The notes beneath the pieces were generated by a model. It was not told where the DNA came from, made no database searches, and worked only from the letters and a program-made list of their open reading frames with translations. A stretch of DNA of 32,142 nucleotides from Jimgerdemannia flammicorona (taxonomy: Eukaryota): assembly GCA_003990765.1 (NCBI GenBank), contig RBNJ01000364.1, forward strand, positions 1-32,142. Reading direction: 5' to 3'. Position numbers and translations under genes: made by a program. Shown here one piece after another: positions 3,629-32,142 of this stretch (position 1 is the first letter of the stretch; the number at the start of each line of letters is the position of its first letter).

Positions 3629-3659
3629 ATTGAGTAGATATTGTAGAAGAGACCTCAAC

Positions 3660-8700: not shown

Positions 8701-9519
8701 TATAATAAGAAAAAAAACTTCAATCTTACTGATATATTACTCATATCTTCTAGTCTAAGGAGAATGAATAGATATAATATGTCTAAGCAATATAGGCTAA
8801 AGAATATATATAATATACTGAATTTGGAGAAGTTAAATCTCTAACTCATAGTTCTGAGGTTAACCTACTACCTACTATACTATAAGATACTGATTGCTAG
8901 AATAAAATAGTAAATATAGGAAAAGTTATAAGAAAATTTTCATGAGCCAAGACTAGTAATCTAAAAAGATTAACCATAAGAATGATAATAAAGATTGGGA
9001 CAAAAGAAGTATAACTCCCCATACTGTTAATAACTCCTATATCTAGAGATCTAGATAGAGTATTTACATTCTGATACAGCCTACCAGATGACTAACCCAG
9101 TATAGGTTAGTATTTATCAATATAGTCTAAAACAATAGCTAGCTCTAACTTTACTTACATCTAGTCTATACCTAGTAGTGTAGTAAGATAAAGTTAAAAA
9201 CTTCTAAAGTATCAAAATATACCTAGTATATAGTATGACAAATCTTTACCAGAAGGACTCAGAACAGGTCAAACCTCCAGCCTACAGACCAAAAGCCCAA
9301 TGCCTTAATAGAATAACTATCTCTCTATAAAAGGTTAAAAAAAATTTAAGTACTCAGCTTAAGAACTAAATTAAGACTTCTTAATTATACAGCAAAGCTG
9401 AGCTCCTTCTGAAAATACTCTACAAAAATCTCAAAAGAGAAAGAGATAAAAAATTATATCAAGAATATCTTGTTTTAAGAAAAACTCTCTAAGACTATTT
9501 AATGAGAATATTAAATCTT

Positions 9520-9539
9520 AAAGAAGGGATAATATAATG
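9520..9539 (+). promoter_or_regulatory. Putative polypurine tract and start of element A 3' LTR (TATAATG, from TGTAAYG)
   Basis: AAAGAAGGGATAA follows a TCT-TAA stop and precedes TATAATG. The right end of this LTR could not be found. Confidence 0.5.
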
Positions 9540-11454: not shown

Positions 11455-12117
11455 TATAACTGGTCATTCAGAATTCAATATTTATTTATATAATTTCTGG
11501 TCATTATTTTCACAGGTTTACTATGTATCTTAGCAGTCTAGTATATCCTTGAGTCTTTCCTAAGTCTTGTTTCAATGGCAGTCAGTTTCTTACTTGATAG
11601 GGTTTGTTTTTTTTTAATTTACTAACTAACTGACTTATATCTTAAATATATAGTCTTAATCTTATATCTTGAGTTTCATAGTAGTAAAAGTAATTCTTCA
11701 ACTCTTGAAGTCTTTTTTTAAAGTTCTTACACTTGACTTCCTTGTCTTTCAGAACTTAAGTTAGTATTATAAACCAATTGACTAAGGTTTATTCACTATA
11801 GATCAGAAGGTATTTATATAATTTTCAGACTATATATAAGGCTAGATAATTGATTGTAACTTACAATTACTAAAAGATACTAATAAGTATAGTTTTAGAA
11901 TTCAGGTGACTAACTAATTAAATAAGACTAATTTTATATTTATAATAAATTGAGCTAGTTAATATATTATCACTATTTATTCAACTAACTAACTTACTCA
12001 ATTTGGCTAATAGAGCTATCCTCATTTGCCTTAAAATTCAGTATGACTGAGATTATGTTATTCTCATTCTCTTTTTCTCCAGGAGATCCAGCTAAATTAT
12101 TTTTTATATTCATCACA
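11455..12117 (-). mobile_element. Solo LTR related to the element D LTR
   Basis: The minus strand starts TGTGATGAA (as at 27507) and ends GTTATA (from GTTACA). It contains TATAAAT followed by AGTGAATAAACCTTAGTC (11797-11780), 17/18 identical to 27797-27814. Flanks ATTA/ATTG fit a 4-bp TSD with one G>A change. No PPT precedes it. Confidence 0.7.
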
Positions 12118-13398
12118 ATTGTACTGAAATTAGTAGAGGGCTCTTGGAGTGAGAAAAGAAAGTTATTAATATTATCTTTCAGTAAAATAAGTGGGTCATC
12201 ATTATTCTTTAAATTGTTTTGGAAGGTAATATTATTGTTGATAATGTTATCAAAGAGCATATGGTTATTCTGCTCTTGAGGTCTTCAGTCAATAGTGATG
12301 TAATCTATAAAGTAGAGAATATTGTGAAATTCTAAAGAAAGCAGACTCTCAAGAAAGGGCCTTGAAATAGTGCAATTAAACAATGGATGAATTGGTCTGG
12401 ATTGGCCTCTAGAATAGGGGTTCAAAGGTCTTAAACCTCATCACTCTTGACTGTGATGGTGGATTGGGCTTCTTCTGCAAATATTTCTTTAAGGTAATCT
12501 ATATAGCAGCTTGTTAGTTCTTAAATGTCAAAGACTTTGATATATTCCAGGTTAGGAATAGTCTAGAGTATATCTGATATACTCTTTTGACCAATTTCTA
12601 TTTATATCTATCTACATAAGTAGTATCTGCAATTTCTTAAGAGCTGGTTTATGAGAATTCTTAATAGAGATAATGTCTCTTCTCATATTTTACTACATCT
12701 AAAGATACTTAGTAGTAGTAATTCTTGTCTCCATTTCATAGTGGTTGAGAGTATAGTAGTAGTGATCTCTTGTATAGAGGTTAAGTCTTAGAGTCCTTCG
12801 TATATATAACCTTATAGTCTTTTTAATATTAGTAAATATTTTTTCTTGAACTGAAAGGCCTAGATGACTTCTTGATCTTATTGTTTGATAGATAACAGGT
12901 ATTTTATTTTGTAGAAAGTCTCTTATTTGATACTTTGTACTTTTCTTTTTATTACTTCTTTTATATCTTGAGAGTTTTCTTTTTTGGCTTAAAGAGTAGA
13001 GTTATCTAATTTAAGATAGTATGCTACTAGAGTTATCATAAGTCATTATGAGTTTGGATGCAGATCATCTTATAATCAAGATAAGTTATAGTTGAGTTAT
13101 AATTTGTAACTGGTGACTTACAAAGTGTGAACAGTCTTTTGAATTCTGATATCACTAGTTTTAAAGATATTATTACATCTATCTCTTGCAAAATTAGAGT
13201 CATCCTCAGTAGTGATAGTTATATAAGAATAGTATGTCTTAATTTCTTTATTGAATAAACTGAGAACTTGCTATCCTTGTCTAGAACAAGGGCTCTCATT
13301 ATTATGACTGGGGGTTTGAATCTCTTAGAAATAGATTTTTCTATAATCTGAGACAATTTCTAATATCAATATCTATTATATAAATAAGCTTAAGAATG

Positions 13399-13415
13399 AG
13401 TCTGGCATTTTCAGC
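13399..13415 (+). repeat. Left target-site duplication of LINE copy 2
   Basis: AGTCTGGCATTTTCAGC versus AGTCTGGCATTTTTGGC at 18919-18935: 13 bp exact, 15/17 overall. Confidence 0.9.
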
Positions 13416-13500
13416 ATCTTTCTCTAGTAACATTCAGGTTACACAATTTTTTGGCAGTACTCACAATACTGTTTTTGGAAAAAAAAAAGTGACCAGCAAT

Positions 13501-15165
13501 ATAGTGACTAATGTATATTCTAAGGTGCATACTAGGTAGGGTACCCTAGTGCATTTGACTGGCAGCATGTGGGGAGGAGCCCTGGCTTGGGGGGAAGCAT
13601 GAGAGGTCTGCTGGTGAGAGAACATATATAGAGAGGGAGTAGGGTTGGAGGGCAGGGGACAGAGAGGGCAAGTTTCATAGATATAGTGAGGAGGAGACAG
13701 CTGGCATCTGGGCTGGAGAGCTGGCTGAGAAAGGGCAAGGAGATGATGAAGGTAGCAGGGTATGAGAGAGCAGTCCTTGGTGGTAGGGGCAGTGTGGCTG
13801 GGGGTATAGTGACTGGAGTGAGTGTGATTGCTGATAGTAATAAGACTGCCAATCTGGAAAAACATCCAGATGTGACTGCTGATAGCAGGGCTGAGAGGAT
13901 AGGGCTTGGATAGATGGGGGACCTGGCAGATAGTGTGATGGGCCTGATGGTGGTACTATTACTCAAGAAGTTGATCTCCAAATTTGTAGTTACTTTGTAC
14001 TTTCAGGGCTTAGCAGTAATAGTGAAGATGATATTGAGACTAATTGCTAAGCAGATGGCTGAAGCAGTGTCCATGAAGTTCCTGAAGAGATTGGAAGGAG
14101 TAGAGGTAGGTTTTGAGAAGGCAGAGCCATTGGAGGAAGCACTGAAGGCTGGGCTGATAGTTGGGGAGATGTGTATTCCAATAGCACACTACTTAAAGTG
14201 GGACTCCCAGGTGATATAGCTGCTGGTGAAAGGGTGTCCATGGTGACCACTGTGAAGATGAGAAGGAGAGTCAAGAAAGTTATGACTGAGTATGGAGAGG
14301 TGGTTGATATTGGGTTCTGGGTCTAGGAGGGGACTATATTCTAAACTAGAGATATGGATATTAAGATTCAGTTAGCAGAGAAGGAAGCTACTGAGAAAGC
14401 TAGGGACTGGCCTTCAGTAATGGTTTTGGGGGCTTTCTTATGCAAGGTGATGAGGGTGAAGAGGAGTGAGGAGGAGGAAGAGGATTTGTTAGAGATACTG
14501 GAGAAGCTGAGTGGTATAGTGAAGTGGAGAGCAAAGGCTTGGAAGGCATATGTGAAGTTGACACATTTGGAGGTTGTAGATGGGAAGAGGACCCACATAG
14601 ATAAGGGGCTGTAGGAAAGGTCCCAAGGATGAACTGGTGGATGTCCAAGAGGAGGAGTGGGATGAGACTGCAAGTACAGGAGCTAATACCTTGATGCTGG
14701 ATGGAGGAAGGCCAGCGACTCCAGGTGGGAAGGAGGTGGGAAACCTACTGTGGATGTGCAAGATGATGAACAACATTGTGGTAGAGGAGTTGGGAGAGAT
14801 AGACCTGCAAGTGATGAGTGAAGAGCATTGGGCACAGATCCTACATAGTGATGGAGTGGTGGAGGCACTGAAGGCAGAGGTTCTTACAGTTTTCCTGAAG
14901 GAGGAAGGGTATGAGGTTGATAAGGAGAGAGAGGCTGAGCTGGTGGTTGCTGCTGGTGAGTGGGCTACCTTCTGTTGGGTAGAGCATTATGGGTTGTAGC
15001 TCTGGCAGAAGGCCTGCCTGAAGTATTATGAGGATTTCGAGAAGAAGGAGGATGGGAAGCTTGCTAAACTACTGGTTAGATTGAAGGCCAAGAGGATTGA
15101 AGAGGAGGCAGTGGCTACTGAACATGATCTGGACTTAGTTCAGGAGGTGATAAATATGGAGCAGT
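13501..15165 (+). pseudogene. LINE copy 2 ORF1
   Basis: Fragments 13686-13913, 13914-14219, 14354-14614 and 14637-14999 align with copy 1 ORF1. Boundaries are approximate. Confidence 0.8.
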
Positions 15166-15198
15166 AGAGGATACACTTACCATTTCACAATATTCCTT

Positions 15199-18100
15199 AT
15201 AAACAGTACAACTAACATTTTTTTTAAATGTGAATAGATTATGTAGTTCATTTCAACATTGGAACATTTTTGCTTAGCTAAAGAGATTGGAGGCCAATCT
15301 CTTTCTTTTACAGGATATCAGATGTAAGGATGATTTGGATAAACTGGAATGGACAAGTAAATAGAGAGGTGAGGCAGTTTAGAAGAGCAAGGTTGGGATT
15401 CTGGTTTGGAGAGACAGAGGAGAGGTATGAGATGTGAGAAGCTGGAGTGATAGACTGGTTTGGGGAGAGTGGATTCATACAGGCTGGGAGCCAGTTACAG
15501 TGGGATCCTGCTACTACTCTGCTGTGTAGAGTGAGTATATCAATTGGGTGAAGGGGTTCCAGAAGAGGGGAGCTCTTGTAGAGGCTGGAGCGGATGTGCT
15601 TGACAGGGACTTTAATATGGTCAGAGATGTGCTGATGGATAGAACTGACAGAGGGCAGGGGGCTGAGGGTAGAAGTGGAGGTCTGGAGATATGAGAGAAA
15701 GTGGAGAGGCTGAGTGCTCTAATAGATGATGGCAGGAGATTCTGGGGTGACAGGATGGTATACATACACTAGGTGAGTGGCCTGGGAACAAGGATTGACT
15801 GAATTTTGATGGCAGACTGCTGGGGCTTGGATGTTTGGAGGTCACTGGAGGCTAAATGGTGTCTATGATATGATTATTGGGGATTGCTGGGCCAGAGGAA
15901 TTTTGGGGGGAGTGGGGATGGATCTGAACATTGGTGCCTCAACTCCTCTTTGTTAGATAATAAGATGCTGTGGAACAAGTGGGCTGAGGACATTTAGCAG
16001 AGAGTGAAGAGGTAGATACAGAAAGGTGCCCCAGTTGGAGTTAGGTGAAGGAGGTTGAAGGAGGCTGCTAGGGTCTATTGGGAGAAGGCTGGCAAGGTGG
16101 TCAGTAGCCAGAGAAGGAAGAGGATGAAGTGGGCTTCTGTTAAATGGGTGAGGCTTCTGGAAGATTGGGCAGATCTGTTGGCCCTGGAGGGGGTGGAGGA
16201 TTGGAGATTACTACAGGTGAAAAAGGAGATTATTGAGTTGCAACAGGGGTTGTGGGAGGAAGAGGAAGCACAGGTGCAGAGTTTGGCAGTGTGGCTATGT
16301 TGGCAGGAGCTGGAGGAAGGGGAGAGGCCCTCCAAGTTTCACATGAGGGCTCTTTAGGTAAGAAGAGTACAGCAGAGGTGGGAAGGGGTTCTTGATTCTG
16401 AGGGACTATTGGTACATGATATACAAAATATTCTTAAATTGTTAAAGAAGAGGTGGAGTGGTTTATGGAGTAAGAAGGAGGGTGGGGCTGATGCTGCTAC
16501 CATTAATAATACTTTGAAGAATTGGCACCAATCACAGGTAAAAGGGCTGGGCAGTCTGGTGTTACTGGTACAGGAGGAGGAGATTTGTCAGGTTCTTACT
16601 GTAACTATACTGGGCACAGCATCAGGGGAGGATGGCCTGCTCTGGGATTTTTGAAGGAAGATGGTGGGTGTCCCCAATATACTGGGAGAGCTGATGGCAC
16701 TTTGTAACTTAGTACTATAGTCTGGGAGATGGGTGGGTGAGCAGGATCTGGGACTGGTGATACTGCTTTATAAGAACAAGGGCAGGAGAGAGGACTGGAA
16801 GAACTGAAGGCTGATCATGCTACTGGACATGGACAGAAAGTCAGTTACTAAGGTGACAGTAGCAAGGCTCAAGAAGGGGGTCCAATAGGTCCTGGGGAAG
16901 GAGCAGCAGGGCTTTGTGGAGGGCAAGCTCATTAGGGATAGTACAGCTTGAGTACATAGTGTTATTGAAGAGACACAAGACTGTAGACTGGATGAGTACC
17001 TGGTCTTTCTGGATCAGGAAAAAGTGTACAATCATGTTCAGCAAGTTTGGATGACAAAGGTACTGAATTGGATTGATATCTCTCAGCAGTTCTGAGTGGT
17101 AATAGTCAGTCTACTGAAGGGGAGTAGAGCAGTGCTCATGTGTAATGGGCATTAAGAGGTGACTTCTCTGGATAAGGGTGTTCCCCAGGGGGACCCACTG
17201 TCTCCCATCCTATATACTCTCTCCTTGGAGCCTTTGATGGATAGGATTCAGTAGAGAATAGTAGGGCTTTCAATATTTTGCATTGGGTGGAAAGTTAGTA
17301 TCTTTGCAAATAATATAGTGGTTGGCCTGGGTTCGATCACTGATATTGAGAAACTCAAGAAGACTATGGAGTAGTATGAGGCACACTCTAGGGCTAAACT
17401 CAATTAGCATAAGTGTGAAACAATAGTGTTGGGTAATGGCCTGGTGGGGGGGGATATCATCAGAACAATTATCCCTGCTAGAGAGGTGGTGAGGTACTTA
17501 GGTATCTATCTCTTGGCATATGGATCAGTCCTACTGAGACTCTGGTAGAAGCAGTGGATTTCAATCTGGGGAGAGGTCTTGCAGAGTTAGAGAGACTGTC
17601 ACTTGTCTCTGGCAGGGTGTGTTTCAATTTTGAATGTTTACTGGCTGCTGAAGTTGAAGTATTTGACTTATCATATGGACTTTTCAGCCTGGATAGTGAA
17701 GAGATAGATGAAATTGGCCAAGGGATAGATCTGGGCCAGGAGGTGGTATCAGATTAGCTGGGAAATCTTGTCTTTGCCAGTAGATAGAGGGGGACTTGGA
17801 CTGGTTGACTTTCCAAAGAGGTTGCACTGTCTGAGAACATAGTGGCTAAAGAGAGCTGTGAAGCTGTGAGGCAGTAGCTAGATTCCCCTGATGAAGAAGG
17901 TGTGAGAGATAAAGTCCTCACCAAGAGACTCTACAGGAGATCTACTGTTCTTGGTAGAGCTTCAGAATAATGAGTATATGTGGTTTAAGGGCTTCTGGTG
18001 GAGAGTAGTGGATGGGGTATACTGAATTGGGATTTATTACCAGAAAGATGAAGGAGAGCTATCTTGGGACCCAATAATGTGAAGATGGGATCAAGTGTAG

Positions 18101-18846
18101 CTAGGGGGTGTCCCTCTAGATGACTTCAATATTAGTAATGGGGTCAAGTGCCAGAAGGGGTTAGGGCAGGACCTGTGGCTTGGCAGGTAGTAGTTGGCAG
18201 GTATTGAAGAAGAGTGAGACCAAAATAGAGTCTGGGCCTAGAGTTCTGAGGTTAGACAGTGGCTACTACTGAAGTATTGAGTGGTCTGGTGGTACATATA
18301 TGTTGAGGAGGAATATTATGCTAAACTTTCACCCAGGCTACCTTGTTGAGGGGGGAAACTTTGCTATGAGGAGTGCTACAATATTGGTCAGGAAGAGGGT
18401 TTTGTGTAGATATCAGAACATTGGCTAGGAGAGTGCAAGGTACTTAGCAACTTCGAGATAGCAGTTGGGAAATAATTGGATATTGTACATAGGTGGGATG
18501 GTGTGAGGGGTCAGTGGGAGGATTTGCAGGATAGATTAGTAGGGGGGATTGGGAAGGAGTGGCTTACTTTAGGTTGGATACTAGCTGTATGGTTGGGGTT
18601 AGCAGGTCATTGGTTGTTTGTTTTTAAGGAAGAGAGGTGTCTGAGCTTAGGGGTGCAGCTGCTGTGATGAGAAGGGTTGATAGAGGACACTCTGAAGGGC
18701 TGATAGCTTGGTTGGGGTCTCCAGAGTGGTTGGCAGCATTGTTTGGTGGAGAAAATCTGTGGTAGTAGGTGATAGGGTGATTTTCAAGTGTGAAGAAGTG
18801 GGGGAGAGTTCCCCTATGGGGATTGAGTAGTGGGAGGAGATGATGT
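15199..18846 (+). pseudogene. LINE copy 2 ORF2 (APE, RT, CCHC)
   Basis: Begins ATA AAC AGT ACA ACT (copy 1 MNSTT with ATG>ATA). Motifs LLQDIR, DFNMV, WCLNSSLL, EGERPSKF, FLDQEK, GVPQGDPLSPILY, FANN (from FADD), EHWLGEC. Confidence 0.9.
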
Positions 18847-18893
18847 AATTATATCTATAGACTGGTAATAAATGGTAGAGTCAATGTGACTAT

Positions 18894-18918
<25 letters not shown>

Positions 18919-18925
<7 letters not shown>

Positions 18926-18935
18926 CATTTTTGGC
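18919..18935 (+). repeat. Right target-site duplication of LINE copy 2
   Basis: Directly follows the poly(A); matches 13399-13415. Confidence 0.9.
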
Positions 18936-19005
18936 TTCTTGAGTTTCAAAGGAAGTATCTGTTATTTTTCAAAAAAGATGATACAGATAGAGTGAATAGA
19001 GTTGT

Positions 19006-21640
19006 TCAAATGTGTTTTACTTCTACTGAGTAGTAAGATCTTATGTAGTTGTAGTATATCTTAGTCTTGAGTACAACTCTATCCAGAGTCTTGAGTTGGT
19101 AGGTGTGGTTTATAAACTCCTGATATATGAGATAGGATTAGTTCAAGTTTTATACTCCAGTTTCCTTCTATGATAGTATAGTATACTAAGACTTATTATC
19201 TAATAAGTAGAGGTTCAAGTTAGCTTTGCAATCATAATACTTCTGTTGTCATTCTTATACCTTAGAAATAAATTCTCAATCTTATTAACATACTTCATAT
19301 AACTGAGTGATCTCTTCAGTAACTTATTTGCCAAATCTAGCTTGATTGGTTTAGTGAAGTCTTATACTTCTCAGCTATATATAAAATAGAAAGGGGTCTG
19401 TTGGGTAGTGGTCACCTTTGAAGTATAGATACTGAATAGAATTACTGAAAGATAAATATCTCAGTTTAATTAATTTTTAGTTTTACTGAGATCTCACTTG
19501 ATGGTCTGGTTTATTCATTTGATAAGTCTATTCAGTTATAGATAATAAGCTGTTTTCAGTTACAGTTTGATCATAAAGTTGTCTACAAAGGTCTTCATAG
19601 TTTTATTAATAAATTCTCAGTCTTAGTCTCTAATAATTTTCCTGGGAATACTATGGTGGCTGGAAATTTTATCATACAGAATTCTATTGCTTATTTGAGT
19701 ATCAGTACTCTCAATAGCAAAGACTTTAGGTCATTTTGTCAGATAATCTTCTATAGTGAGGATATAGAATCTTTATTAGCTAGTTACTAGTAGAGAACTA
19801 ATAATATCTATTTCTAGTCTTTGAAAGGCTCTAGATAGTGATATAATTAGCATTAGTAATACTTTATCAGTTGGTTTCTATCAGTATCTTTGGCAGATAT
19901 TATATTGTTAAATATGTATCTAAATTTGTTTCCTCATTTTTGGCTATTAGTATCTCTTCTTGATTCTTGCAATAGTGACTTTAATTCCTCAGTATATATT
20001 CTGACCATGGTTTGTTATGAGTATCTTTAGTATTTTATCTTCTTGTAAAACTTAGATATATCAATCGCCATCTACTCTCTAAAGTTCACCATCATTTTTT
20101 TGAAATTTCTTAAAATTTCTTTATATAAACAGCTTGTTAGCTGGTTGAATTTCCTTTTGGAAGCTCCTATAGTATAGGCTTTAAGTGAGAGTGAGGTGCA
20201 ATTCTTGGTTTATTTGAGTAAGTAAGAAGCAGTCTTCTGTTATAGAGGCTCCTACCCTTCTCATTAAGTTTATAGAATCCTTAACAGAGTATCAATATTG
20301 GAATTCTTAATATATTTCTTATAGATAATAGTAAACTAATATTCTTGCAGAGATATGATTTATCTGGTAAAGATTTCTGAGAGCTCTGATTTGTTGAACA
20401 ACTATTATAGAGCTTAGTGATCAGTAATAAGAATAAATCTCTTTCTCAAGAGATGGTGTCTAATGTGATCTATAGCCTATACTATAATAAGATATTCTAG
20501 CTTAGTGGCTCCCTAGTTTGCTTATATCTCATTAATGACCTTGCTAGTATACTCAATGACATATTTCTTCTTCTGGTCATTTTGTTGATCTAAGTCCAAG
20601 AGCAGGGACATCTGTTACCAAGATAAATAGTTTGTCAAAATATAGTTATACTAAAATAGAAGCTTTGGTAAGGGTCTTCTTGAGTAGGTCAAATGACTTC
20701 TATTATTCTTCCCTTCAGTAGAATAGTTGGTCTTTCTTAGAGATGTTATATAGTAGAGCTATCTTAGCTGAAAATCCTAGAATAAATTACTGATAGTAAG
20801 ATACTAATATGAGAAAAGATAGGATATTCTTTCCAGAGATAAGAGTTGGATAATTCTTAACTTTCTCTATCTTGTATAGGTTAGTATAAGTTCCTTGGGC
20901 TGAAATTATATATATATCTCAGATATTTGACTTAGTGTTTTCCAAAGAAGTATTTCTTAATATTAAGTCTAAGTTCTGAGTTTCAGATAGTATCAAATAC
21001 TTTATAGAGATCTTGTAGATATTGTTCAAATGTCTTAGAGTAGATAATCATATCATCTATGTATATCAGCACATTTATTCCAATAAGGTCTCAGTAGATA
21101 TAGTTTATTATTTTCTTGAATAAGGCTAGTACATTATCTAATCCAAATAGTTTCCAGAGATATTTATATTATTCTCATCTGATAATAAAGGCTGTCTTGC
21201 AGATATTATTCTTAGTAATGAGTATTACTTGAAATTCTTGAAACTGATCAGTGGTATTCATATACTTGCCTTTTCTAAGAGTATTGAGAAGGTCATCAAT
21301 TCTTAGCAGTGGGTAGATATCTTCTATAGTGACTTTATTAAGTTTTCTAAAGTTTACAACTATTTTCCATTCTTCTTTCTTTGGTACTATGATTGCTTGT
21401 GAAGTCCAGGGGCTTGATGAGGGTCTAATGACTCTATTTCATAATATTTCATCTATGTATTATTGTTCAAACTCAATTAAGTAGTATAGTATTCAGTAGG
21501 AGTATTGTTGGATTGGTTTGATATCTTTTATATATATGGTATATTCTATATATTGATATGGTAGAAAGTTATTATATATAGTAATAATATATCTTTATAT
21601 TCTTCGATCAACTTCTGTAACTATTATTACTGATTCTTAG
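19006..21640 (-). pseudogene. pol: Gypsy B RT, RNase H and integrase
   Basis: IRPSSSPWTS, DIYPLLRIDDLL, VLIYIDDMIIYS, ITDH*AL, a degenerate HHCC (RY**PKM...YNICQR), FQRLEIDII, and a GPY/F-type tail (HTYQLKTLD) ending in TGA at 19008-19006. Confidence 0.92.
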
Positions 21641-22080
21641 TCAGAGTTGTCTCAATGTCAACAGCTTTGATTGCCAAGTCTTCCTCTCTAATATCATTAG
21701 TCTCACTAGAGAGAACTTGCTCTTTTCCAAAAATTCAAAAACTTCTTCCTTATAGGTATCTATCATGGTTTGAAATATCTCAATATTATATCACTAGAAA
21801 TTATTATCACTTTGAAGCCCAGGTTTTAGATAGAAATATAGATTGGTAACATCAGATTATAGATTTATTCTTCAGCTAGGATGATTTTCAGAGTTCTATT
21901 GATAGATCAAATATCAGATTGTTGGTATCTACAAATAGGTATATATCAAGGCTTCTTTGTTGATATGTTGAAGAGAATATCTTCTCTTACTCAGATAGAG
22001 TAGCAGATATGTAGTTTTATTTATCATAACTGAGCTACTATTGCTAAGTAGACTTCAATGAGTGATTTTTGAGAAGTTCT

Positions 22081-22476
22081 ATTGGTACTTCCAAAACCAC
22101 CTTATTCTCTCTTAGTACTGTCTAGTTGATTCACCTCTTGAATAGTAAGCTATAATATCTTAATAAATAGAATTTGACAGATGACTTCAAAGTAGTTAAA
22201 GACTTAGTAGTTTCTACTATTATTGTGAATAATAACCTTTGGAGGACCTCAATAATCCTGATCAATAATCCCTCCTTCCTTTGACTGCTAGAGATAATTT
22301 TGATATTAGTTGTTTATAATATTCAAGTAGTATAGTGTGTAATTTGAAGATCAAAATTCCTAGTGATCCTAGGATAGAGTATTACCTAATAGAGAAGACA
22401 GAGGTCATATTTTACTGATCCTTCTGTTTGTACAAGAGGAGGTTATGCCCAAGATGATAGCAGTTTGACTTCAATA
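22081..22476 (-). pseudogene. dut: dUTPase domain of element B (between protease spacer and RT)
   Basis: VKLLSSWA*PP..TEGSVKYDL (motif I, AGYDL), GIIDQDY*G (motif III, G-x-ID-x-DYRG), ICQILF (motif IV), KRE*GGFGST (motif V). Confidence 0.88.
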
Positions 22477-23559
22477 ACTAGCTAGATCTTGAGGAATGTT
22501 ATCTCAGTAGTTATTATTATAAGTGAGAACTCCATCCTTTCTGGCTTAAAGAATAGTTAATGTACTCTAATCTTTAGATTTCTTGTACAGTTGAATCTAG
22601 TTTTTTTAAGTAGATCTAAGGCTTTTATAAAAGTGAAAGTAAGGTTGACTCCTTGTTTATCTTTAGTGTGGCCAGTAATACTAATAAATGATAGTAAGAA
22701 TTTCTAATGGTAGATCCTAGATAGAGGTCTTGTTCTTGACTTTACAGTTTCCTTTATGGTTGAAATCTTTGTATTTCCAAAAGGCCCAGTAAATTTGAGG
22801 TTCTATAAGATGGGATCCTTCCTCTTAACTTAGCTCTTATAGATAACTTCACTGAGGTAGATACTTCAATATTCATATCAGTAACAGGTAAAGGTCTTTC
22901 CACAATCACAGTATCCTTGCTTGATGAATTCCTCATTCTGCTGTTTGATTTCCTTAATTATTAGATATCTTTTTCAATATTTGTTATATATAGGTAGAGT
23001 GATCTAGAGGGTTCAGATAATGGTATAGATACTGTTGTTATTATCTTTAATTGTGAGGGTCTCCAAAGGTTAGTAAGAGAGGATCTTCTATTCTTTATTA
23101 TAGATCTTCTTGAAAAATTTTGAAATAGATGGTAGTATTCATCTGAGGACCAAAACTCATTTTAACTTTAATTGCTAGCATTGGAATCTTTTTGAGATCA
23201 AGGATTTGGTAGTTGCTACAATTATTCCTTGGTGAGTAGAAATAGTTATAGTATTTATACATATTTAAGTGAAAGGCTCACATAATTCAATTTTCTTTCA
23301 GAGGTAGAGATGGTGATATAGATGGTCTTACAAATTTGAGTACTACTTCTTTACTAATAGTCAATCAATACTTGCTTCTAGACTTTCAGTATTAATAACT
23401 TCAATAAAAAGGTTTTTTTGACTACTGTCAAGATCTTAGAGATATCAAAATCACTTTCTAGTTCTTGCAGAAAATTTACTTCACTTTTATCCTCTATAAT
23501 AGTGAGTATATCTCTATATTCTTATCATTCTGTCTTGGAGGCCTAACTTGCTCTCTTTG

Positions 23560-23930
23560 ATCCTTTTGACTCAATTAGTATCTTGTGCTTTTGTCTATAA
23601 AAGGTGAAGACCAGGAGTTATTTTTTGATATCTATATTAGCTCCAACTTAGTATAATCAGTTAGTTTCCAAAATCAGATCAGAGGAGGTTACCAGAATTA
23701 TTACAGCTTAAGGTATATTGAGGCAAACCTTTTTACCTTAAATAGATATATCTCTAACTAGTCCAAGAGAGGTAGATACTAATTCATCTGCTATGATAAC
23801 TCTTACTTTGGTTCCTTTATCAATTGCTTACTCAATCATTTCTAGTATTTACTAAATAATAATGCAAACTACTGCTTCAGTATCAATAAGGATTCTGATA
23901 TTTTCACTATGTATCTTTCTATTAACTAAT
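23560..23930 (-). pseudogene. Aspartic protease of element B
   Basis: ILIDTEAVVCII (from ILIDTGAAxCII, as in element D) and a downstream DLILETN* (DLILGTNW-like). Confidence 0.85.
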
Positions 23931-25102
23931 ATTGTAGATTAATATTCTTAATACTGGTATTTATAAACTGTATGGATAGTACTAGGTTCTAGTGTATATA
24001 GTTCTTGAACAGAGATTCTCTTAGTATCTTCTTAGGCTTCCTTAAGGAATTTTTGCCTAATCTCTAATGTATTTTTGAGAATCTTTTTGACTGTGAGACC
24101 TGTATTCTAGATATGGAGATATTTCCAAAGTGATGCTGCTTTATAGAGCATACTGCTTCTTTGATATCTAGGTCTTTTATAGTGAATTCTCTTATTTTTA
24201 TTAGACAATTCATCAGCTGAAGACTCTATACTCATGTGCTCATCTTCTTTAAGGTCAGGTAGAGAGGTACTTCTTGATACTCTTGATTGACTAGCTTCTG
24301 GTTCAGGGGTGTCTCTTCTAACTCTCTAGTCCTTCTTCTGAGAGTATCTAAATAGAAATAGCTATGTCTTGGATATTTGTCTGCAGATATAGTTACTGGC
24401 AATGGTGGTGGAAGTGGGGTCCTTAGAGATCTTTCTCATCCTCTAGTCTATATAGGTACTATATCTCAAGTTACCTTAGAGGGAAAGGCTTCATAGTATA
24501 GATAGATATCCTTTTAACCATAAAACCAGGTGGCTTCTTCCTCCATTTCTCAAGTCTCTTCATCCACTTGAATGATATTGATATTTCTATCATTAAATAG
24601 AGTTTGTTTTTTTAGACAAAATCTCTAAATGTGATCTTGTTTTCTACAGTAGAAGCAAGTTAGAGTATAGGAACCAGTTGGTAGTGAACCTATAGTTGTA
24701 ACTGGTGAGACCTGAGTGGAACTCCTGTTATTTTACTGCTAGTAGTCTGGTCTATTATCTCAATAATAATCTTGTTATTTTCTTTCTTGGTTCTTTAACT
24801 AGACAACTATAATGGCTAGGTCTTTTATTTGTTTAGTGAGTATAGTTATAGAGTATACTTGAATTCTTAGTATAGACTACTATTGTTGACTGTATTGAGT
24901 TAAAATTGAGAATAGGGGTCTGGTCTCATAGCTGACCAACTAGACTCTCAAGTTGGTTTTCTCTTATTTTATAGTTGTTCTATAAGTCCTTAAGGTTTTA
25001 GCTTAGACTAGTTCTCAATATTCTTATACTTATAGGGTAGTCTATAGTCAGCTTTCCAGCATCCTTATGCTTCAGCAACTTGTTGCTCAATACTTCAATA
25101 GC
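23931..25102 (-). pseudogene. gag: C-terminal part of element B gag with CCHC knuckle
   Basis: 24657-24616 translates CFYCRKQDHI*RFC (Cx2Cx4Hx4C). The N-terminal part is displaced by element C. Confidence 0.8.
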
Positions 25103-25566
25103 TGTAACAATTTCACAGTTATATTTAGTCTTAGTATATTTTTGTTTCTTTTAGTTAGTCTTTTTTTGTCATTTCTTGAACATTCTACTGTATTCTGCTA
25201 CCTTCTACTTGCTTAGAAACCTTTTCTTGGTGCCCAGATACCACTAGAACATTCTTATCTTTCCTTGATATCAAGTATCTTATCTTAGCTAGTTAAAGAA
25301 CCTTTCAGAACATTGTAGAATAGTATTAGTCTGCTTTGCCAAAAACCTATTTTTTGACATTTCTCTTTCTTTCCAAGATCCTTCCAAATCTTTCTTTTAG
25401 ATCATATATAAATATCCTTGTTCTCTGCCTGAATAAAGCTCAGAATATTTTCTCTCAGAAATCCTTCAAGAATACTTGAACCTTTAAGTATCTTTTCAAG
25501 CTACTTTAGGCCAATTAGAACTTCCAGATTTAGCCACTTCCTCTTAAAGAAACTAGAACTATTACA
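25103..25566 (+). repeat. 5' LTR of element C (464 bp)
   Basis: Starts TGTAACA and ends TATTACA (from TGTTACA). It interrupts B gag and is followed by a PBS-like sequence and gag. The partner LTR is outside the window. Confidence 0.75.
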
Positions 25567-25581: not shown

Positions 25582-25661
25582 TGGTTACACCTTGCCTTAT
25601 TAAGAAATCTCACAGAAATTCGGAAAACAGTCACAAATAGTCACACAAATCTAAAATTAGC

Positions 25662-26560
25662 TATGAAGAGTCAGTCTATCAGCCAGACCCCTCTGCTACA
25701 GAAGAAGTAGGAGGATTACAGCTCAATATAGAGGATATAATCAATGTTATGGCCTACCAAATCTAAGAACTTCATGTATAACTAGAACAGCAGAAAACAA
25801 GAACTGTAAGTATATCATATTCTACCATAGCCACTAGTCAGTTTCAAGTTACTCAAGCCAGATATCTTCAACAGCCATTGAGGAGGGCTATCTACAGATA
25901 CATAGATCTTCCAGTTGGATGAATACTTCGAGCTCACAAGAATGGAAGAAGACATGAAAGTCCAATTTGCTACCACACTTCTCTGAGGAAATGCAGCCAT
26001 CTGGTGGCATAATTATATCATGGTTACCTCTGTACACTCATATGCATGAATCAGAGACTAGGATGCCTTCAAGAGAACCCTTTACAAGCAGTTCAAGTCT
26101 GCTAATACTATCAAACTAGCCAGAGACAAGCTAGTGAACATCAAGTAACTCAAGTCTACAATGCACAATTCTTGTCAATTCTACTCGAGCTACCAGTGAT
26201 ATCTGAGGACAAAAAGATTAACTGCTATATCCAAGATCTGAAGGAAATACATGAGTCAAGATCAAGCTAGAAGAGCCCAAAAACCTTGATGAAGCCATGA
26301 GAATTACTAATTGGTTTGATGTTATCACCTTTGGTAACTACTTTGAACCAAAATCCTGCAAGATGAATCACTTTGAGAACCACCACAAGAACCAACCAAG
26401 GACAGTTGGCCTGGCACCAATAGACCTATATACCATAAACAAAAAGAACACCAAGCTTACCACTAGGACCACCTAAAGAAATCTGGAGCCTGTTTCTTCT
26501 GTCATCAAATAGAACATATTGCAACCAAATGTCCTAAGAAGACTAGTGAACCCTCAAGAT
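25662..26560 (+). pseudogene. gag: Element C gag
   Basis: KPDIFN..T*IFQLDEYF..KVQFATTLL*GNAAIWW; knuckle CFFCHQIEHIATKC at 26491-26532. The start is approximate. Confidence 0.88.
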
Positions 26561-26616
26561 CAGTCACTATGTTGTCCAAAGATACATCTGTCAACCCCAC
26601 TACCAGTCAACTCAAG

Positions 26617-27028
26617 CTTAAGATCAAGAAGCTTCATCTAAAGGCCCAGACCCCTCAATATCAAATAGAAGAAGTCATTGGTCTTAACCTACACTCAGTC
26701 AAACAAGTCACTATTTTAGCTAAGGGCTGCACTCTGATGCCTACTGAAAATTACAGTTCAATGTCCTGAAAGACATTATGCCAGAATTGTACTGTAATCA
26801 GGACTCAGTATCAAATATCATTTAGATATAGGTACTGGTGTCATTGACCCAAACTTTTTAGAATAAGTTTAAGTTCCACTTATTAACTAGAAGGATCAAG
26901 ACTACACAGTTAAGGAAGGAGACTGAGTTGCACAAATGATCCTAGAAAAAGCCAGTCAACTTAAGATTACAGAAGTCCAAGAACTCCCTGAAACCAAATA
27001 AGATCAAAAAGATTTTAGCAGCACTGAT
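26617..27028 (+). pseudogene. dut: dUTPase domain of element C (between nucleocapsid and protease)
   Basis: LKIKKLH..AQTP..IGLNLHS (I), HYARIVL*SGLS (II, PRSGL), GVIDPNF (III), GD*VAQMIL (IV), TK*DQKDFSST (V, from TxRGxxGFGST). Confidence 0.92.
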
Positions 27029-27059
27029 CAAGCAGCCAGTCTTAGTGAAAATCAAGCTT

Positions 27060-27506
27060 AAGCTATACTCATTTCCAAAGGCTTAGTCAAAGAAAAAGAA
27101 GTTCAAGTACTCATAGACAGCAGAGCTACAAAGAACTTCATTAATCAGAATCTCATTGAAAGCCTCAGGATTCTTATCAAGTCTGTACCCAAGAACAATA
27201 GTATAATCACTACAGATGGTACTCTGTATCCCATTGAGTCAATTGCTACCAAACTACCCATCAAGATCTAGAAATATTGAGAATGAGTAGACTTTGAGGT
27301 TGCTCCACTAGGAGATTATAATCTGATCTTAAGAAAACCCTAGCTTATGAAATATAACCCAGACATCAATTGGTATAAGAATGAAGTCACCCTACTTCAA
27401 GATAGAGCTAATATTACTATCAAGACAGATACGACCATGAGCAAGATCCAGATTATAATACTTTTAGCTATATGTACAAGAGAGTACTCAAGAAGACAAT
27501 ATATAT
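27060..27506 (+). pseudogene. Aspartic protease of element C
   Basis: VLIDSRATKNFI (from LIDSGAT) ... YNLILRKP*LMKYNPDINW. Confidence 0.9.
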
Positions 27507-28463: not shown

Positions 28464-28585
28464 CCAGAAATCGCATACTTTTGGAAATCGTCATACTACA
28501 CAAGGATTGTCATACAGAGATTGTCATACTATACAAGGATTGTCGCACCAAGACCGTCACCCAGAAATCGCATACTTTTGGAAAT
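28464..28585 (+). repeat. 25-bp perfect direct repeat enclosing a GTCATAC..GATT mini-array
   Basis: CCAGAAATCGCATACTTTTGGAAAT at 28464-28488 and 28561-28585; GTCATACTAYACAAGGATT at 28490 and 28523. Confidence 0.9.
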
Positions 28586-28846
28586 TACCTTGCTAAACAA
28601 AATTGTACCATTCTCAGTTGACCTAAGAAGGAAAAGACACATGAATCACTGCTACACCCAGAGAACCATCCCAATAAGGAAATTGCTCATGGACATCCAG
28701 CTTTGACTATTGTACTACTAAACACCAAGGACCTCAGGAATCTAAGAACATTTTGTTGCTTTTTGACAAAGTAACTGGAGGCTCAAGCCAAACTACATCA
28801 ATCTCCAATCTTGTAATTTGCCTCAATTGAGCCAGCACGTTACATT

Positions 28847-28877: not shown

Positions 28878-31800
28878 ATATGACTTTTCAGCTCACAAGA
28901 ACCCACAGTCAAACTGAATACATTTGATACAATACCAATTTCTGCCACTATAGGAGAACTAGTCATCACTAGTATTTGGACAGGAAGAGAAGTAATTATC
29001 TCAAGACTTGCCAACTACCCAGCATCAGAAGGATCCCAACCAGAAGCAGGAGGCAGTACAGTCCAAAATCCCCAACCAGATCAACCAGATCAACCAGACA
29101 ATACAGACAGCCTTACTAGAGATTTCGGAGAACTTGTACAAGAACTAGAAGACCTTATCACACGGGCCCAATACTTTACAGCCAGATACCCCACACCAGT
29201 CCCACCAATCTCACCAATAGAACCCCTACCACAACCCCTTGCAGAACTGGAAGTAGCTCCTACAAGAATACCTAGGCCTATTCCACTCCATTTAAGAACC
29301 AGAACACCATCTTCAAGATATCCAAGCACCCCCATCTCTAGTGACAGTTCAGAAAGTGAATCAGAATCTGAATCCGAACTTGAACCAGAATCAGAAGAAA
29401 GTGATGATGAAATGGCCACCTCATTGCCAACCTTTGCAGGATATCTGGAGGAAGATCCCCAAGAATTCCTTGATGGAATCGAAGGAATTGCAGCCTTGAG
29501 AAATCTCTCAGATGAAAGAAAAATTGCCATCTACAAAGCCCAGCTCAGAGAACCAGCCAGAGGAATTTTCCATCAAACAGTGAACAACTGAGATTCAGAA
29601 CTAGTAAGACAGATACAAGCAGCAATGTCGGATGAGCTAGAATACGAAGCCATGGTCTACTGGCTCATTGAAAAATATGCAGGAAATGAAACCCGCCACA
29701 AGGCCCAGAAATCTATCATGGGAATGAAGATAAATCTTGGAGAATTACCCAGAGCCTTCTTCACAAGAATCCAGAAGAGAATGCATTCTGCCGGGTTCAA
29801 TGCCACTAACCAAGACATTATGGTCCAATGACCTTCATGAATGGAATTCCTCCAAATATTGCCCAGCATGTCTGCACCCTAGGCATCAGAAGGTCTGAAG
29901 AATAAGTAGATGCAGCCCAAGGATTCTTTGATATCAGGCAAGGAACTACCTGGAGTGACCATGACAAGAAGGAAGATAAAGATGATATCCTGATCAAAGC
30001 CCTACAAGGACTCCTTCAAGGACAAGAAAGGACCAAAGAAAGAAGGTCATCCAAGGAAGGAAAGAAGGACAGAAGTAAAATTCAAGACCTCAGCTCCAAG
30101 TTAGACCAATTGGTCAGACAGATTGAAAAACTCACCACATGTGAAAATCAGGATTACCAAAACAACAGAGGGTACCCACCACAGAGGAGCCAAGGTTATC
30201 CACCAAGAGATAACAGAAATTACCAGCAAGAAGAAAGAAGGTACCCTGTCCGAGACAGAGCCCAAGTCCAATGCTTCTACTGTGGACAATTCAGATACTA
30301 TGCCACTGAATGTAACAACAAAAGAAGTGACCAAAGGGACTCAGAACCACCAAACCAAAGGAATGACACTCAGTACAAAAAGACTGAAGCCCATCCTGTT
30401 GAAGATTTCAAAGAAGCAAGTGACAGTAAAGACTACAGTGACCTAGACTTGTACCCCACTAGGGTTACAACTTGGAAAACAGTCTATCCAGCAGAGAAAA
30501 GAAAAAGACCCATAGGAAGACCATCCAGGAACATCAGCAGAAGAATTATCCAAGAAGAGGATGAAGAACATGAGGAAGTACAAGTATAAACACCTCCCCA
30601 AACCCCCTCACCTTTTGTCCTCGAGACAAATGAGTTGCTACCAGAAGATGAAGAAATGGAACAAGAAGAACGGGAACCTGCTGCTCCAAAGCCTAAGAAG
30701 AAGTGCACTCCAAAGATCATGCCTAGAGACATTTACAATGAAGCCTGGCAGAAGATTCAAGAAGCCAAGATAGAAATCCCTCTCCTGCAGTTCTTGCAAC
30801 TGACACCAGCTGGAGTTCGAAACAAATTGCTGAGAACCACCAGGTCTAGCACTGGCCGAGTTCCAATCCCACAGCAAGAACCAGCTTCCATTCCTGTTCA
30901 AGCAGCTGAAAGACATGTCAGCACCTACCTACATGGAGATATTGGAGGACAAAAAGCGAAAATCCTCATAGACACAGGAGCAGCCATCTGTATTATTGCC
31001 AAACAATTCTTGGACACCCTCCAATGGCCCATTGATGGACCATCCAACCTCAGCATCATAGTAGTAGATGGAGCCCGAACTCAACCCCTTGGAGAAGTAT
31101 GAAATATCACTATCTCCCTTGGACACATTCAATTCTCCATCCCCAAAGCTGTTGTCACTGAAGCTGTCACCTATGACATGATTCTTGGCACCAACTGGAT
31201 GAAGGAAATGAATGCAGTTGTTGACATTGGCCAACAAGTACTCAAGTTTGACTACTGAGGCAAGAAGTACAGAGTTAAGGTGACCAGAAATGAGCAATTG
31301 AAGAAAAAGAAGAAGGTCACAATTCAGGAAGAGTATGCCAGCAGTGAAGAATCTACCACAGAAGAAGAAGAAGAATCCGAAGATGGAAACAATCCCAGAC
31401 TCAATCCCTGAATTAACCTGGTGGATGACAGACCAGAAGACAATGTGTGGACTAAGAACACCATCCCCATCACTATTGGAGCCATTGCAGGAGAAGCCAA
31501 AGGATGCCCCACATGCCTCAAGAGACACAAGTGTCCCAAGCACTCCTCCAAGATCATGGGAACAAGGAAATCGCCTGGCACAGCCTGCCCAGAGTGCAGA
31601 AGAAAGAAGAAGAAATGCAGATATGTTCCAGAAACACCTGCAACTAAAGCTGTAGAAGTACAAGCAATTTGGGGTCAAGAATCATCTGAGGAAGAAGAAA
31701 CTTCTGATCAAGAAGTTCCTGAACAAGGAGCACCTGATGAAGAAGAAGTCCCCAAACTCATTCCCTGGGATGACCCTCGCTGGACACCACCTGAAGATAA

Positions 31801-32098
31801 TGACCCCTGTAATACAGAGGAAGGACCCAGTATCATCACCATTATCCCCAAGAAAGAAACCCACTAAGAGAAAGCTTTCTGGTTGGAAGATGTCCACATC
31901 AAATGGTCTTCCACTCTCCATGAGACTACTGCTATCAGTGTCATCTGTTGGACCAACAAGAAAGATAGAGACCCCAGAGACCAGAACCCCTAACTACTCT
32001 TACACAGTCTACTATCTTTCAAGAAGTCACCACAAGGTTACAAAGTTAATTTAAAGGACAAGGCTTCTTTACCTGAACAGGAATATATCTCTTGTCTA

Positions 32099-32100
<2 letters not shown>
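28878..32100 (+). pseudogene. gag-pol: Element D gag-pro polyprotein (few stops, two apparent frameshifts)
   Basis: LPTFAG..EDPQEFL; TFMNGIP; knuckle CFYCGQFRYYATEC (30272-30313); protease ILIDTGAAICII and YDMILGTNW. One frame runs from ~29832 to ~31810, interrupted only by TGA/TAA stops consistent with CGA/CAA origins. Confidence 0.9.

Positions 32101-32142
<42 letters not shown>
32101..32142 (-). mobile_element. Poly(A) tail of a probable third LINE or other retroposed insertion on the minus strand
   Basis: 42 T interrupt element D coding sequence at the window edge; the body is not visible. Confidence 0.6.

Follow-up and report, generated by a model that had tools for sequence, protein, structure and literature searches.

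LTR retrotransposons are known to acquire accessory domains, among them dUTPases and chromodomains that steer integration. In the fungal Ty3/Gypsy elements, both the presence and the position of these domains vary, and independent acquisitions from genes of the cell are assumed to account for them, as stated in the accessible part of the source (PMC2864245). No report of a Zn2Cys6-like unit in the polyprotein of an LTR retrotransposon was found at the level of titles and the beginnings of abstracts. In transcription factors of the GAL4 type, the zinc cluster is followed by a linker and a coiled-coil dimerisation element, and such factors are reportedly far less numerous in the early-diverging fungal lineages than in the Dikarya. 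A small, basic, Cys-based zinc motif that does occur in retroelement polyproteins is the nucleocapsid CCHC knuckle, which has the form C-x2-C-x4-H-x4-C, lies in gag and binds nucleic acid. The accessible part of PMC2447501 gives the zinc cluster consensus as CysX2CysX6CysX5-16CysX2CysX6-8Cys, and that of PMC4832277 mentions a standard dimerisation domain of zinc-cluster proteins.

The locus described here lies in a 32,142-bp stretch of Jimgerdemannia flammicorona DNA (hereafter the window), of which 28.8-32.1 kb, on the + strand, are occupied by element A, a Ty3/Gypsy-type LTR retrotransposon in which gag, with its zinc knuckle, precedes an aspartic protease, all in one reading direction. Its gag core (29433-29944, +) was located by tblastn with residues 10-198 of P0003, the polyprotein of its nearest relative (29-45% identity, E 1e-15). 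A frameshift (frame 28809 versus frame 28808) lies upstream of the gag zinc knuckle, CFYCGQFRYYATEC (30272-30313, +), which is degenerate, with Tyr where His is expected; the equivalent knuckle of P0003 matches Pfam zf-CCHC. The retroviral-type protease (30935-31204, +; residues 710-799 of P0001) is recognized by the Pfam families gag-asp_proteas (1.4e-9), Asp_protease_2 (6.3e-9) and RVP_2 (1.4e-4); it carries its DTG motif within LIDTGA (30965-30982) and is broken by a TGA at 31100. The 3' part of the element falls outside the window, and hence no LTR pair is visible; the LTR of the element is placed at about 27.5-28.8 kb.

Translation of the frame from 30902 yields, at 31502-31624 (+, 41 codons), the string GCPTCLKRHKC PKHSSKIMGTRKSPGTA CPECRRKKKKCRY; the original prediction of a six-Cys motif in the protease frame, GCPTCLKRHKC-x17-CPECRRKKKKCRY, was thus read exactly. 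The first half, GCPTCLKRHKC (Cx2Cx5C; 31502-31534, +), has its Cys codons at 31505, 31514 and 31532, and is separated by a loop of 17 residues, PKHSSKIMGTRKSPGTA (31535-31585, +; His at 31541-31543), from the second half, CPECRRKKKKCRY (Cx2Cx6C; 31586-31624, +), which has Cys codons at 31586, 31595 and 31616, includes RRKKKK (31598-31615) and resembles the first half of the Zn_clus model. The module as a whole comprises some 55 residues, is strongly basic (net charge of +13 across the 41 residues of the motif) and follows the pattern C-x2-C-x5-C-x2-H-x14-C-x2-C-x6-C. It contrasts in charge with its surroundings, which are acidic on both sides as had been predicted: the net charge is -12 over the 60 residues preceding the module, where the tract SSEESTTEEEEESEDG (31340-31387, +) is found, and -17 over the 80 residues following it, which include ESSEEEETSDQEVPEQGAPDEEE (31679-31747, +). 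The in-frame stretch of 653 residues contains 13 Cys, six of which are in the motif. At least six Cys were found within some 41-residue window in 93 of 20,000 shuffles, and the two half-motifs in seven of 200,000 residue shuffles. As the full pattern did not arise in any of those 200,000, the clustering of the Cys residues is not due to chance.

A phmmer search of 1,835,955,588 proteins with the 151-residue open reading frame that carries the module returned four matches at E<=1e-3, two of which cover the module: P0006 (BC936DRAFT_139739, E 2.8e-5) and P0007 (BC936DRAFT_141612, E 5e-5), both hypothetical proteins of J. flammicorona (Endogonales). The full extent of the similarity to these two proteins is 31463-31666 (+), i.e., 68 codons that correspond to the module and about 13 residues on each side, as delimited by phmmer, alignments A1 and A2, and the self-hit of the module profile (6.2e-36). 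Alignment A2, which joins element A, P0006 and P0007, has 18 invariant columns, including all six Cys, the His and the loop residues G-x-R-x-SPG-x-A (loop columns H27, G33, R35, S37, P38, G39 and A41), and no insertion or deletion occurs over its 38-residue core, so that the loop has the same length in the three proteins. The identity of the module with P0006 and P0007 is 49% (20 of 41 positions, counted from alignment A2), with identical Cys spacing, and the regular expression of the module pattern matches residues 900-937 of P0001, 202-239 of P0006 and 167-204 of P0007. As a difference, P0007 has two more Cys after the module and P0006 one, and element A lacks them.

P0006 and P0007 have in common 54 residues (50% identity, E 3e-14) and nothing else, and each matches the window at the module only. 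Pfam detected no gag, protease, reverse transcriptase or other retrotransposon domain in either. The context of the module differs between the two: in P0007 a C2H2-like finger lies upstream, albeit at 22.1 bits, under the Pfam cut-off of 25.2, and in P0006 three acidic tandem repeats lie downstream, with a composition that resembles that of the element linkers. They are the only homologues that could be detected: in longer proteins, the profile of alignment A2 found P0006 and P0007 only, of 352 candidates, and a search with the whole of P0007 recovered no relative other than itself among 387 candidates. The conservation of the six Cys was assessed from one copy of element A, P0006 and P0007. 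Together, these comparisons support the view that the module is a real, conserved Cys domain with homologues outside retrotransposons, and the sharing of the module alone by three otherwise different proteins fits a shuffled or captured domain. It thus represents a small, unannotated Cys domain without a Pfam family and with three known members. A further phmmer match, the ankyrin-repeat protein P0005 (E 3.5e-6), was set aside, its six repeats being aligned with a Pro/Asp-rich stretch after the module (query residues 95-133) and not with the module.

Related elements were compared with element A at the corresponding place. A scan of all six frames of the window with the module profile gave 31463-31666 as the sole real match, in agreement with the earlier claim that element B of the same window has no equivalent; the same claim held the linker of B to be shorter, which is not supported, since the protease and dUTPase of B are about 360 codons apart and the linker of element A runs off the window. 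The absence of the module from B is weak evidence because B is heavily decayed (GC 0.31, CpG observed/expected 0.01). P0003 has the organization gag-PR-dUTPase-RT, with a protease-dUTPase linker of about 300 residues that contains acidic repeats of a similar type, and the profile of alignment A2 did not find the module in P0003 or in the related P0004. When residues 700-1019 of P0001 were used in a word-index search, P0003 and P0004 were the two retained of 2667 candidates, and they matched in the protease only. Likewise, the phmmer search with the 151-residue frame identified no other polyprotein carrying the module in 1.84 billion proteins. If the module was captured or exchanged, related elements would be expected to lack it, and it was not found in those that were examined (B, P0003 and P0004). 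The window itself holds a precedent, as the dUTPase follows the protease in B and precedes it in C, much as the accessible part of PMC2864245 describes for other fungal Gypsy elements, and the fragment at 5.6-13 kb terminates in a chromodomain. Like these domains, the module is an extra, non-core domain inserted in the polyprotein; it differs from them in being a small, Cys-rich and probably nucleic-acid-binding unit.

The reading that we favor, with a little better than even confidence, is that a basic Cys module located in the post-protease linker of element A is homologous to a module of host proteins and has moved between host genes and the element, and that it is a putative binder of zinc and nucleic acid. 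The module sits in a hypervariable acidic linker after the protease of a Ty3/Gypsy-type element. Movement between host genes and the element is deduced from the homology to two non-retrotransposon proteins that are otherwise unrelated. Fungal Gypsy elements are known to have acquired dUTPases and chromodomains, and by analogy it appears more likely that the element took the module from a host regulatory gene than the reverse. With respect to the proposed capture of a DNA-binding Zn2Cys6 module, what stands is a conserved Cys module in a polyprotein with homologues outside retrotransposons, and what is not supported is its membership of the GAL4/Zn_clus family. Binding of zinc and nucleic acid is suggested by the resemblance of both halves to the basic first half of Zn2Cys6 clusters (A-C-x2-C-R-x2-K-x-K-C). 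The six Cys might bind zinc, perhaps in a binuclear cluster whose conserved loop is long, and nucleic acid might be contacted by the Lys/Arg faces of two short predicted helices; RRKKKK may at the same time be a nuclear localisation signal. If the element were active, the module would be translated within Gag-Pol where, placed between its acidic flanks, it could act as a peptide that targets DNA or activates transcription, or else provide a second nucleic-acid chaperone. A role in transactivation or targeting is speculation, and the copy in the window is dead. If such a role were real, a transcription-factor-type DNA-binding module in Gag-Pol would provide elements with a new route to the control of their own expression or to the choice of their targets. 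The case is limited by its reliance on a single dead copy and two orphan homologues.

The module shares with the nucleocapsid knuckle its small size, its basic character and its presence in a retroelement polyprotein, but its pattern and location differ, element A has a separate knuckle in its gag, and the profile of alignment A2 gave no match to the knuckle regions of the window or of P0003.

It is possible, though doubtful, that transfer took place in the reverse direction or not at all, the module having been born in a retrotransposon linker and later co-opted by the host, or P0006 and P0007 having been modelled on fragments of elements. These two proteins could indeed be mis-modelled or derived from elements: both are orphans whose contigs are short (5254 and 3545 bp), P0006 is partial, and its acidic repeats are like the element linkers in composition. 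On the other hand, neither shows a retrotransposon match in Pfam or a match elsewhere in the window, and P0007 carries the C2H2-like finger. A CP-x-C-x5-C knuckle that follows the acidic linker of P0003, in the equivalent position, was considered as an ancestor of the first half and rejected, as it is not detectably homologous: the profile of alignment A2 does not hit it, and 1365 of 2000 shuffles reach its score. Were the reverse transfer true, elements would be a source from which their hosts can acquire new regulators.

That the module is a genuine binuclear cluster of the GAL4 Zn(II)2Cys6 type, i.e., a member of Zn_clus (PF00172) captured whole from a fungal transcription factor, is unlikely. 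The module and such clusters are both fungal and strongly basic, with six Cys arranged in two CxxC-x(5-6)-C halves, and A-C-P-E-C-R-R-K-K-K-K-C in the second half of the module matches the A-C-x2-C-R-x-K-K-x-K-C with which GAL4-type clusters start; the basic stretch that this string places between Cys2 and Cys3 is present in the second half, and the first half is also basic there (LKRHK). Zn_clus is the top Pfam family for all three module sequences, each time below threshold (best E 0.0017). The HMMER comparison with this family that had been proposed along with the original prediction gave 15.7 bits (E 0.017) with the 151-residue frame and 17.4 bits (E 0.0048) with the 68-residue segment, against a gathering score of 21, and the match covers positions 1-18 of the 39 of the model, with the second half of the module on the first half of the model, in the "wrong" order. 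In the PDB, all seven sequences returned by the module profile at E<=10 are GAL4, LAC9 or PUT3, with E values of 0.3-3.8; profile positions 40-53 align with residues 9-22 of GAL4 (E 0.3). The nearest Atlas clusters are likewise Zn_clus, with feature scores of 0.79-0.80 and structural TM values of 0.40-0.45, values below 0.9 being a "lead only". All the weak signals of similarity point to Zn2Cys6 proteins, each below significance, and they share a single basis, the A-C-x2-C-R-x2-K-x-K-C string, so that they are not independent.

The AlphaFold2 model computed from the three-sequence alignment (pLDDT 48.5, pTM 0.29) has two short helices of low confidence, at residues 16-20 and 43-47, that begin directly after Cys1 and Cys4, which would resemble the helices starting at each CxxC of GAL4-type clusters. 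The quality of this model does not suffice to demonstrate a binuclear fold. Its single Foldseek match in the PDB, PUT3 (E 6.5), carries no weight because the model is of low confidence.

Several observations argue against membership. Pfam scans of P0006 and P0007 over their whole length detect no Zn_clus at E<=1, and the canonical zinc-cluster proteins, although very numerous, are all missing from the phmmer matches in 1.84 billion proteins. The spacing, 2-5-17-2-6 in all three proteins, is outside the consensus given in the accessible part of PMC2447501: the first half is one residue short (x5, not x6) and the loop exceeds the range by one, while the second half conforms. In GAL4-type clusters the loop has 5-16 variable residues, in contrast to the fixed 17 of the module with their conserved His and SPG, and the cluster lies at the N terminus of a transcription factor, whereas the module lies in a retrotransposon linker between acidic tracts. 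No coiled coil or regulatory domain is apparent downstream of the module, where an acidic tract comes next, and the 68-residue model, itself of low confidence, places no helix after it. The module thus looks like a GAL4-type zinc cluster, yet its inclusion in Zn_clus is not supported by sequence comparison.

An extension of the favored reading, which we put forward as possible, though doubtful, is that the module might be an undescribed form of zinc cluster, a Zn2Cys6 unit with a duplicated half or a permuted order, composed of two tri-Cys units that both resemble the canonical first half and of a fixed 17-residue loop with His and SPG. It might have been shuffled between host regulatory genes and a Ty3/Gypsy element in the Endogonales, and might give the element a sequence-specific DNA-binding peptide of its own, an element-encoded transcription or integration-targeting factor whose flanking acidic tracts resemble activation regions. 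The fixed spacing of the module probes the limits within which the Zn2Cys6 architecture varies, here in a fungal lineage that diverged early.

It is very unlikely that the locus is a chimera in which element A was truncated after its protease and the module, contributed by an adjacent fragment of a host gene, is in frame by accident. The roughly 500 bp from the module to the end of the window (32142) contain no reverse transcriptase, RNase H, integrase or dUTPase, and the only homologues of the module are non-element proteins, as a chimera would have it. Against this, a linker repeat flanks the module on both sides, as PRLNP*INLVDDRPEDN (31394-31444, +), which holds a TGA at 31409, and as PKLIPWDDPRWTPPEDN (31751-31801, +); the two copies were found by local DNA alignment and are about 77% identical over 52 nt, the protein alignment being weak (score of 46, reached by 32 of 1000 shuffles). 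The downstream flank (31742-31879, +), which spans a TAA at 31865, recurs in the 59-residue protein fragment P0008 (phmmer E 6.4e-4, 59% identity; tblastn 56% over 48 residues, 3.4e-11). The reading frame is continuous, and the A-richness and the CpG/TpG pattern are uniform across the region. In addition, the linker of P0003 is of comparable make-up. The repeats on both sides, the P0008 flank and the uniform composition support the module being embedded in element sequence. The window itself ends in a poly-T run.

The notion that CpG deamination created a spurious Cys cluster from a basic linker by turning Arg CGY into Cys TGY codons, which might be entertained given the CpG and TpG values reported below and the fact that all six Cys codons are TGY within an Arg/Lys-rich stretch, is refuted in effect by the presence of the same six Cys, identically spaced, in two intact proteins elsewhere and by the shuffling results given above.

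Signs of deamination are nevertheless present in this copy. The observed/expected ratios in the coding part of element A are 0.12 for CpG and 1.42 for TpG, the latter rising to 2.07 in the module, and this depletion of CpG with an excess of TpG supports deamination decay in general. The in-frame stops between the protease and the motif had been thought to be TGA codons only, at sites of likely CGA; they are solely three TGA, at 31100, 31256 and 31409, and a CGA origin fits the first two, where P0003 has Arg, but not the third, which aligns with Trp in the second linker repeat of element A and in P0008. The copy of element A in the window is dead, as judged from its in-frame stops, gag frameshift and CpG decay, and the end of the window truncates it. 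The stop-free run of 151 codons around the module is no evidence of selection, because with six in-frame stops in about 730 codons a run of this length is expected about 29% of the time. On the opposite strand, a long antisense open reading frame (30932-31681, -) without a Pfam match is taken to be a by-product of the purine-rich coding strand.

Within the Gag-Pol of element A, a decayed Ty3/Gypsy element on the plus strand (~28800 to the window end), a conserved basic unit of six Cys residues and one His is found behind the protease. The motif GCPTCLKRHKC-x17-CPECRRKKKKCRY lies exactly at 31502-31624, in the protease frame and inside a 151-codon stretch, as first noted. This module has a net charge of +13 over 41 residues, and its flanks are acidic (-12 before, -17 after). 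Six of the 13 Cys in 653 in-frame residues fall within it. Shuffling of the residues gave at least six Cys inside 41 residues in 93 of 20,000 trials, a pair of half-motifs in 7 of 200,000, and the full Cys pattern in none of 200,000. The reading of frame and position and the shuffle tests thus confirm the module, and its Cys clustering is not explained by chance composition.

A phmmer search with the 151-residue open reading frame against 1,835,955,588 representative proteins returned four matches at E<=1e-3. The module is matched by two hypothetical proteins of Jimgerdemannia flammicorona (Mucoromycota, Endogonales), P0006 (BC936DRAFT_139739, 531 aa, E 2.8e-5) and P0007 (BC936DRAFT_141612, 289 aa, E 5e-5). 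The core alignment of the three sequences is indel-free with 18 invariant columns, including the six Cys, a His three residues past the third Cys and the loop G-x-R-x-S-P-G-x-A, and all three proteins match C-x2-C-x5-C-x2-H-x14-C-x2-C-x6-C. Conservation of all six Cys is therefore borne out in P0006 and P0007 with identical spacing, the element side being represented by one copy. Deamination converts CGY (Arg) to TGY (Cys) codons, and the basic linker of a decayed element could gain false Cys in this way, an artefact ruled out by the same six Cys in both homologues.

P0006 and P0007 each match the window at the module alone, which is also all that they have in common (54 residues, 50% identity, E 3e-14). 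No retrotransposon domains were found in either with Pfam; in P0007 the module is preceded by a C2H2 finger that scores below threshold, and in P0006 it is followed by three acidic tandem repeats. Further searches yielded no additional members (2 of 352 candidates, which were P0006 and P0007, and 1 of 387). A 59-aa fragment, P0008, shows 59% identity to the post-module stretch alone, spanning the TAA at 31865, which indicates that the downstream flank of element A recurs elsewhere. The ankyrin-repeat protein P0005 (1174 aa) was set aside as a module homologue, since it matches a Pro/Asp-rich stretch via its own repeats. Its six tandem repeats with L-S-D-P-S-T-W-T-x-R-D-D-E-D-P align with window positions 31694-31810, around the linker motif P-K-L-I-P-W-D-D-P-R-W-T-P-P-E-D-N-D-P (E 3.5e-6), a match that is probably compositional or repeat-driven.

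The module shares the protease frame and the A-rich, CpG-poor, TpG-rich composition of the element. A linker motif occurs on either side of it, PRLNP*INLVDDRPEDN (31394-31444) resembling PKLIPWDDPRWTPPEDN (31751-31801); the DNA copies are ~77% identical over 52 nt, and the protein score, equalled in 32 of 1000 shuffles, is weak evidence. The nearest related element, P0003, is 32% identical across the protease and has the order gag-knuckle-protease, ~300-residue acidic repeat linker, dUTPase and reverse transcriptase (RT), so that a long acidic post-protease linker is a family trait. The module was not found in P0003, where the protease part gave the sole significant alignment (2e-8) and the profile of the three modules did not match the Cys region, nor in the related element P0004, nor elsewhere in the window in any of six frames. 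Taken together, the in-frame position, uniform composition, flanking linker motif and these absences fit entry of the module into the fast-evolving post-protease linker of the element. According to a published study, fungal Gypsy elements have repeatedly acquired dUTPase in the same linker place (PMC2864245), and elements B and C of the window are further instances. Alternatively, the module of P0006 and P0007 might have been co-opted from the element, or both proteins might be faulty gene models, since they are orphans from short contigs. The module is shared, probably zinc-binding, and has moved between genes and the retrotransposon, which supports the proposed interpretation in part. Residues 740-758 of P0003 (source 'ena') read H-C-P-x-C-x5-C-x4-C-x-C, between acidic linker and dUTPase. 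This string has the CP-x-C-x5-C spacing of the first module half, but the similarity is not significant; as a module relative at an analogous place it was rejected, its score being reached by 1365 of 2000 shuffles, and may represent a zinc knuckle of that linker independent of the module.

A captured GAL4-type domain had been proposed; what stands is a real, shared module in a retrotransposon, and what does not is a canonical GAL4-type assignment. Pfam Zn_clus (PF00172, the GAL4-type Zn2Cys6 family) scored 15.7 bits on the open reading frame and 17.4 bits on a 68-residue segment, below the gathering score of 21, and covered half of the model. The match is limited to A-C-P-E-C-R-R-K-K-K-K-C-R-Y at profile positions 1-18 of 39, the second half of the module thus resembling the first half of the model. 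It was sub-threshold in all three module segments (best E 0.0017), and whole P0006 and P0007 gave no Zn_clus match at E<=1. A PDB search with the three-module profile returned seven sequences at E<=10, all GAL4, LAC9 or PUT3 (best E 0.3). In an unreliable AlphaFold2 model (pLDDT 48.5), short helices start right behind Cys1 and Cys4, and Foldseek on this low-confidence model gave one match, PUT3 (E 6.5). The nearest Atlas clusters are Zn_clus families (0.79-0.80 by features, TM 0.40-0.45 by structure), rated 'leads only' by the tool. All comparisons lean to Zn2Cys6 and none is significant; nor are the signals independent, as all depend on one basic tri-Cys string. Whereas published work gives the spacing CysX2CysX6CysX5-16CysX2CysX6-8Cys (PMC2447501), the module has x5 in its first half and a fixed x17 loop with a conserved His. 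It is therefore not assigned to Zn_clus and is described as a Zn2Cys6-like variant with both halves of the basic 'first-half' type.

Zinc would be chelated by the six Cys, either in a binuclear cluster whose long loop is structured or at a single site completed by the His. Lys and Arg residues of the two short helices would bind nucleic acid, and RRKKKK may double as a nuclear localisation signal. In an active element, the module could be freed by the protease or kept N-terminal on the next domain. As a basic cluster between acidic tracts, it could serve integration targeting or LTR transactivation, or else act as an additional nucleic-acid chaperone. A title-level literature search turned up no description of a module of this kind within the polyprotein of an LTR retrotransposon.

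In the frame from 30902, the gag region of element A leads through a degenerate knuckle (30272-30313) to the aspartic protease (DTG at 30965-30982; Pfam gag-asp_proteas 1.4e-9). In-frame TGA stops follow the protease motif at 31100, 31256 and 31409, and after the third come the 151 codons without stop (31412-31864), a run with ~29% expectation at the local stop density and therefore no sign of selection. The knuckle reads C-x2-C-x4-Y-x4-C, and its Tyr at the CCHC His position fits C-to-T mutation of a CAY codon. The present copy is non-functional, given its frameshifted gag, six stops in frame from 30587 onward, the Tyr-for-His knuckle and its truncation by the window. Directly behind element A sequence, the window closes with 43 or more consecutive T (32100-32142), so that any dUTPase or RT downstream is out of view; a non-LTR insertion on the minus strand, with its poly-A tail, could account for these T, as could an edge of the assembly. 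Upstream of gag, a 40-nt direct repeat (28464-28503 and 28561-28600, 85% identity, spacing 97 nt) presumably lies within the LTR or leader.

The window consists of nested eukaryotic retroelements. A GC-rich LINE-like element on the minus strand (1-5600; RVT_1 4.4e-22, open reading frames) has an inverted decayed copy on the plus strand (~13000-19000), recognized by inverted repeats of 71-76% identity. At 5601-13000 (plus strand) lies a Ty3/Gypsy fragment that is AT-rich and encodes RT, RNase H, integrase, SH3 and a chromodomain. It is joined by AT-rich Ty3/Gypsy element B (~18900-25500, minus strand; protease, dUTPase, RT, RNase H, integrase) and by fragment C (25601-27460, plus strand; gag, knuckle, and dUTPase preceding protease). 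The dUTPase is placed after the protease in B (~22481-22083) and before it in C (Pfam 1.3e-14, residues 382-475; protease 483-601, frame read from 25601). C stops abruptly near 27460, probably the insertion site of element A or of its LTR.

CpG depletion is strong in all window elements (observed/expected 0.01-0.12 in the Gypsy elements), and TpG is in excess in the younger ones, a pattern that fits methylation-driven deamination. RIP is not known to have been described in Mucoromycota. In the Gypsy remnants at 5601-12700 and 19000-25500 (GC 0.27-0.31, CpG observed/expected 0.01), the TpG/CpA excess is gone; their decay is extreme and exceeds simple CpG-to-TpG change. Strand GC skew is very strong in both LINE-like copies (-0.3 to -0.56 at 1-5600, +0.3 to +0.53 at ~13000-19000), and they are unequal in GC (0.55 versus 0.45) and CpG observed/expected (0.35 versus 0.02), one being far more deaminated than its partner.
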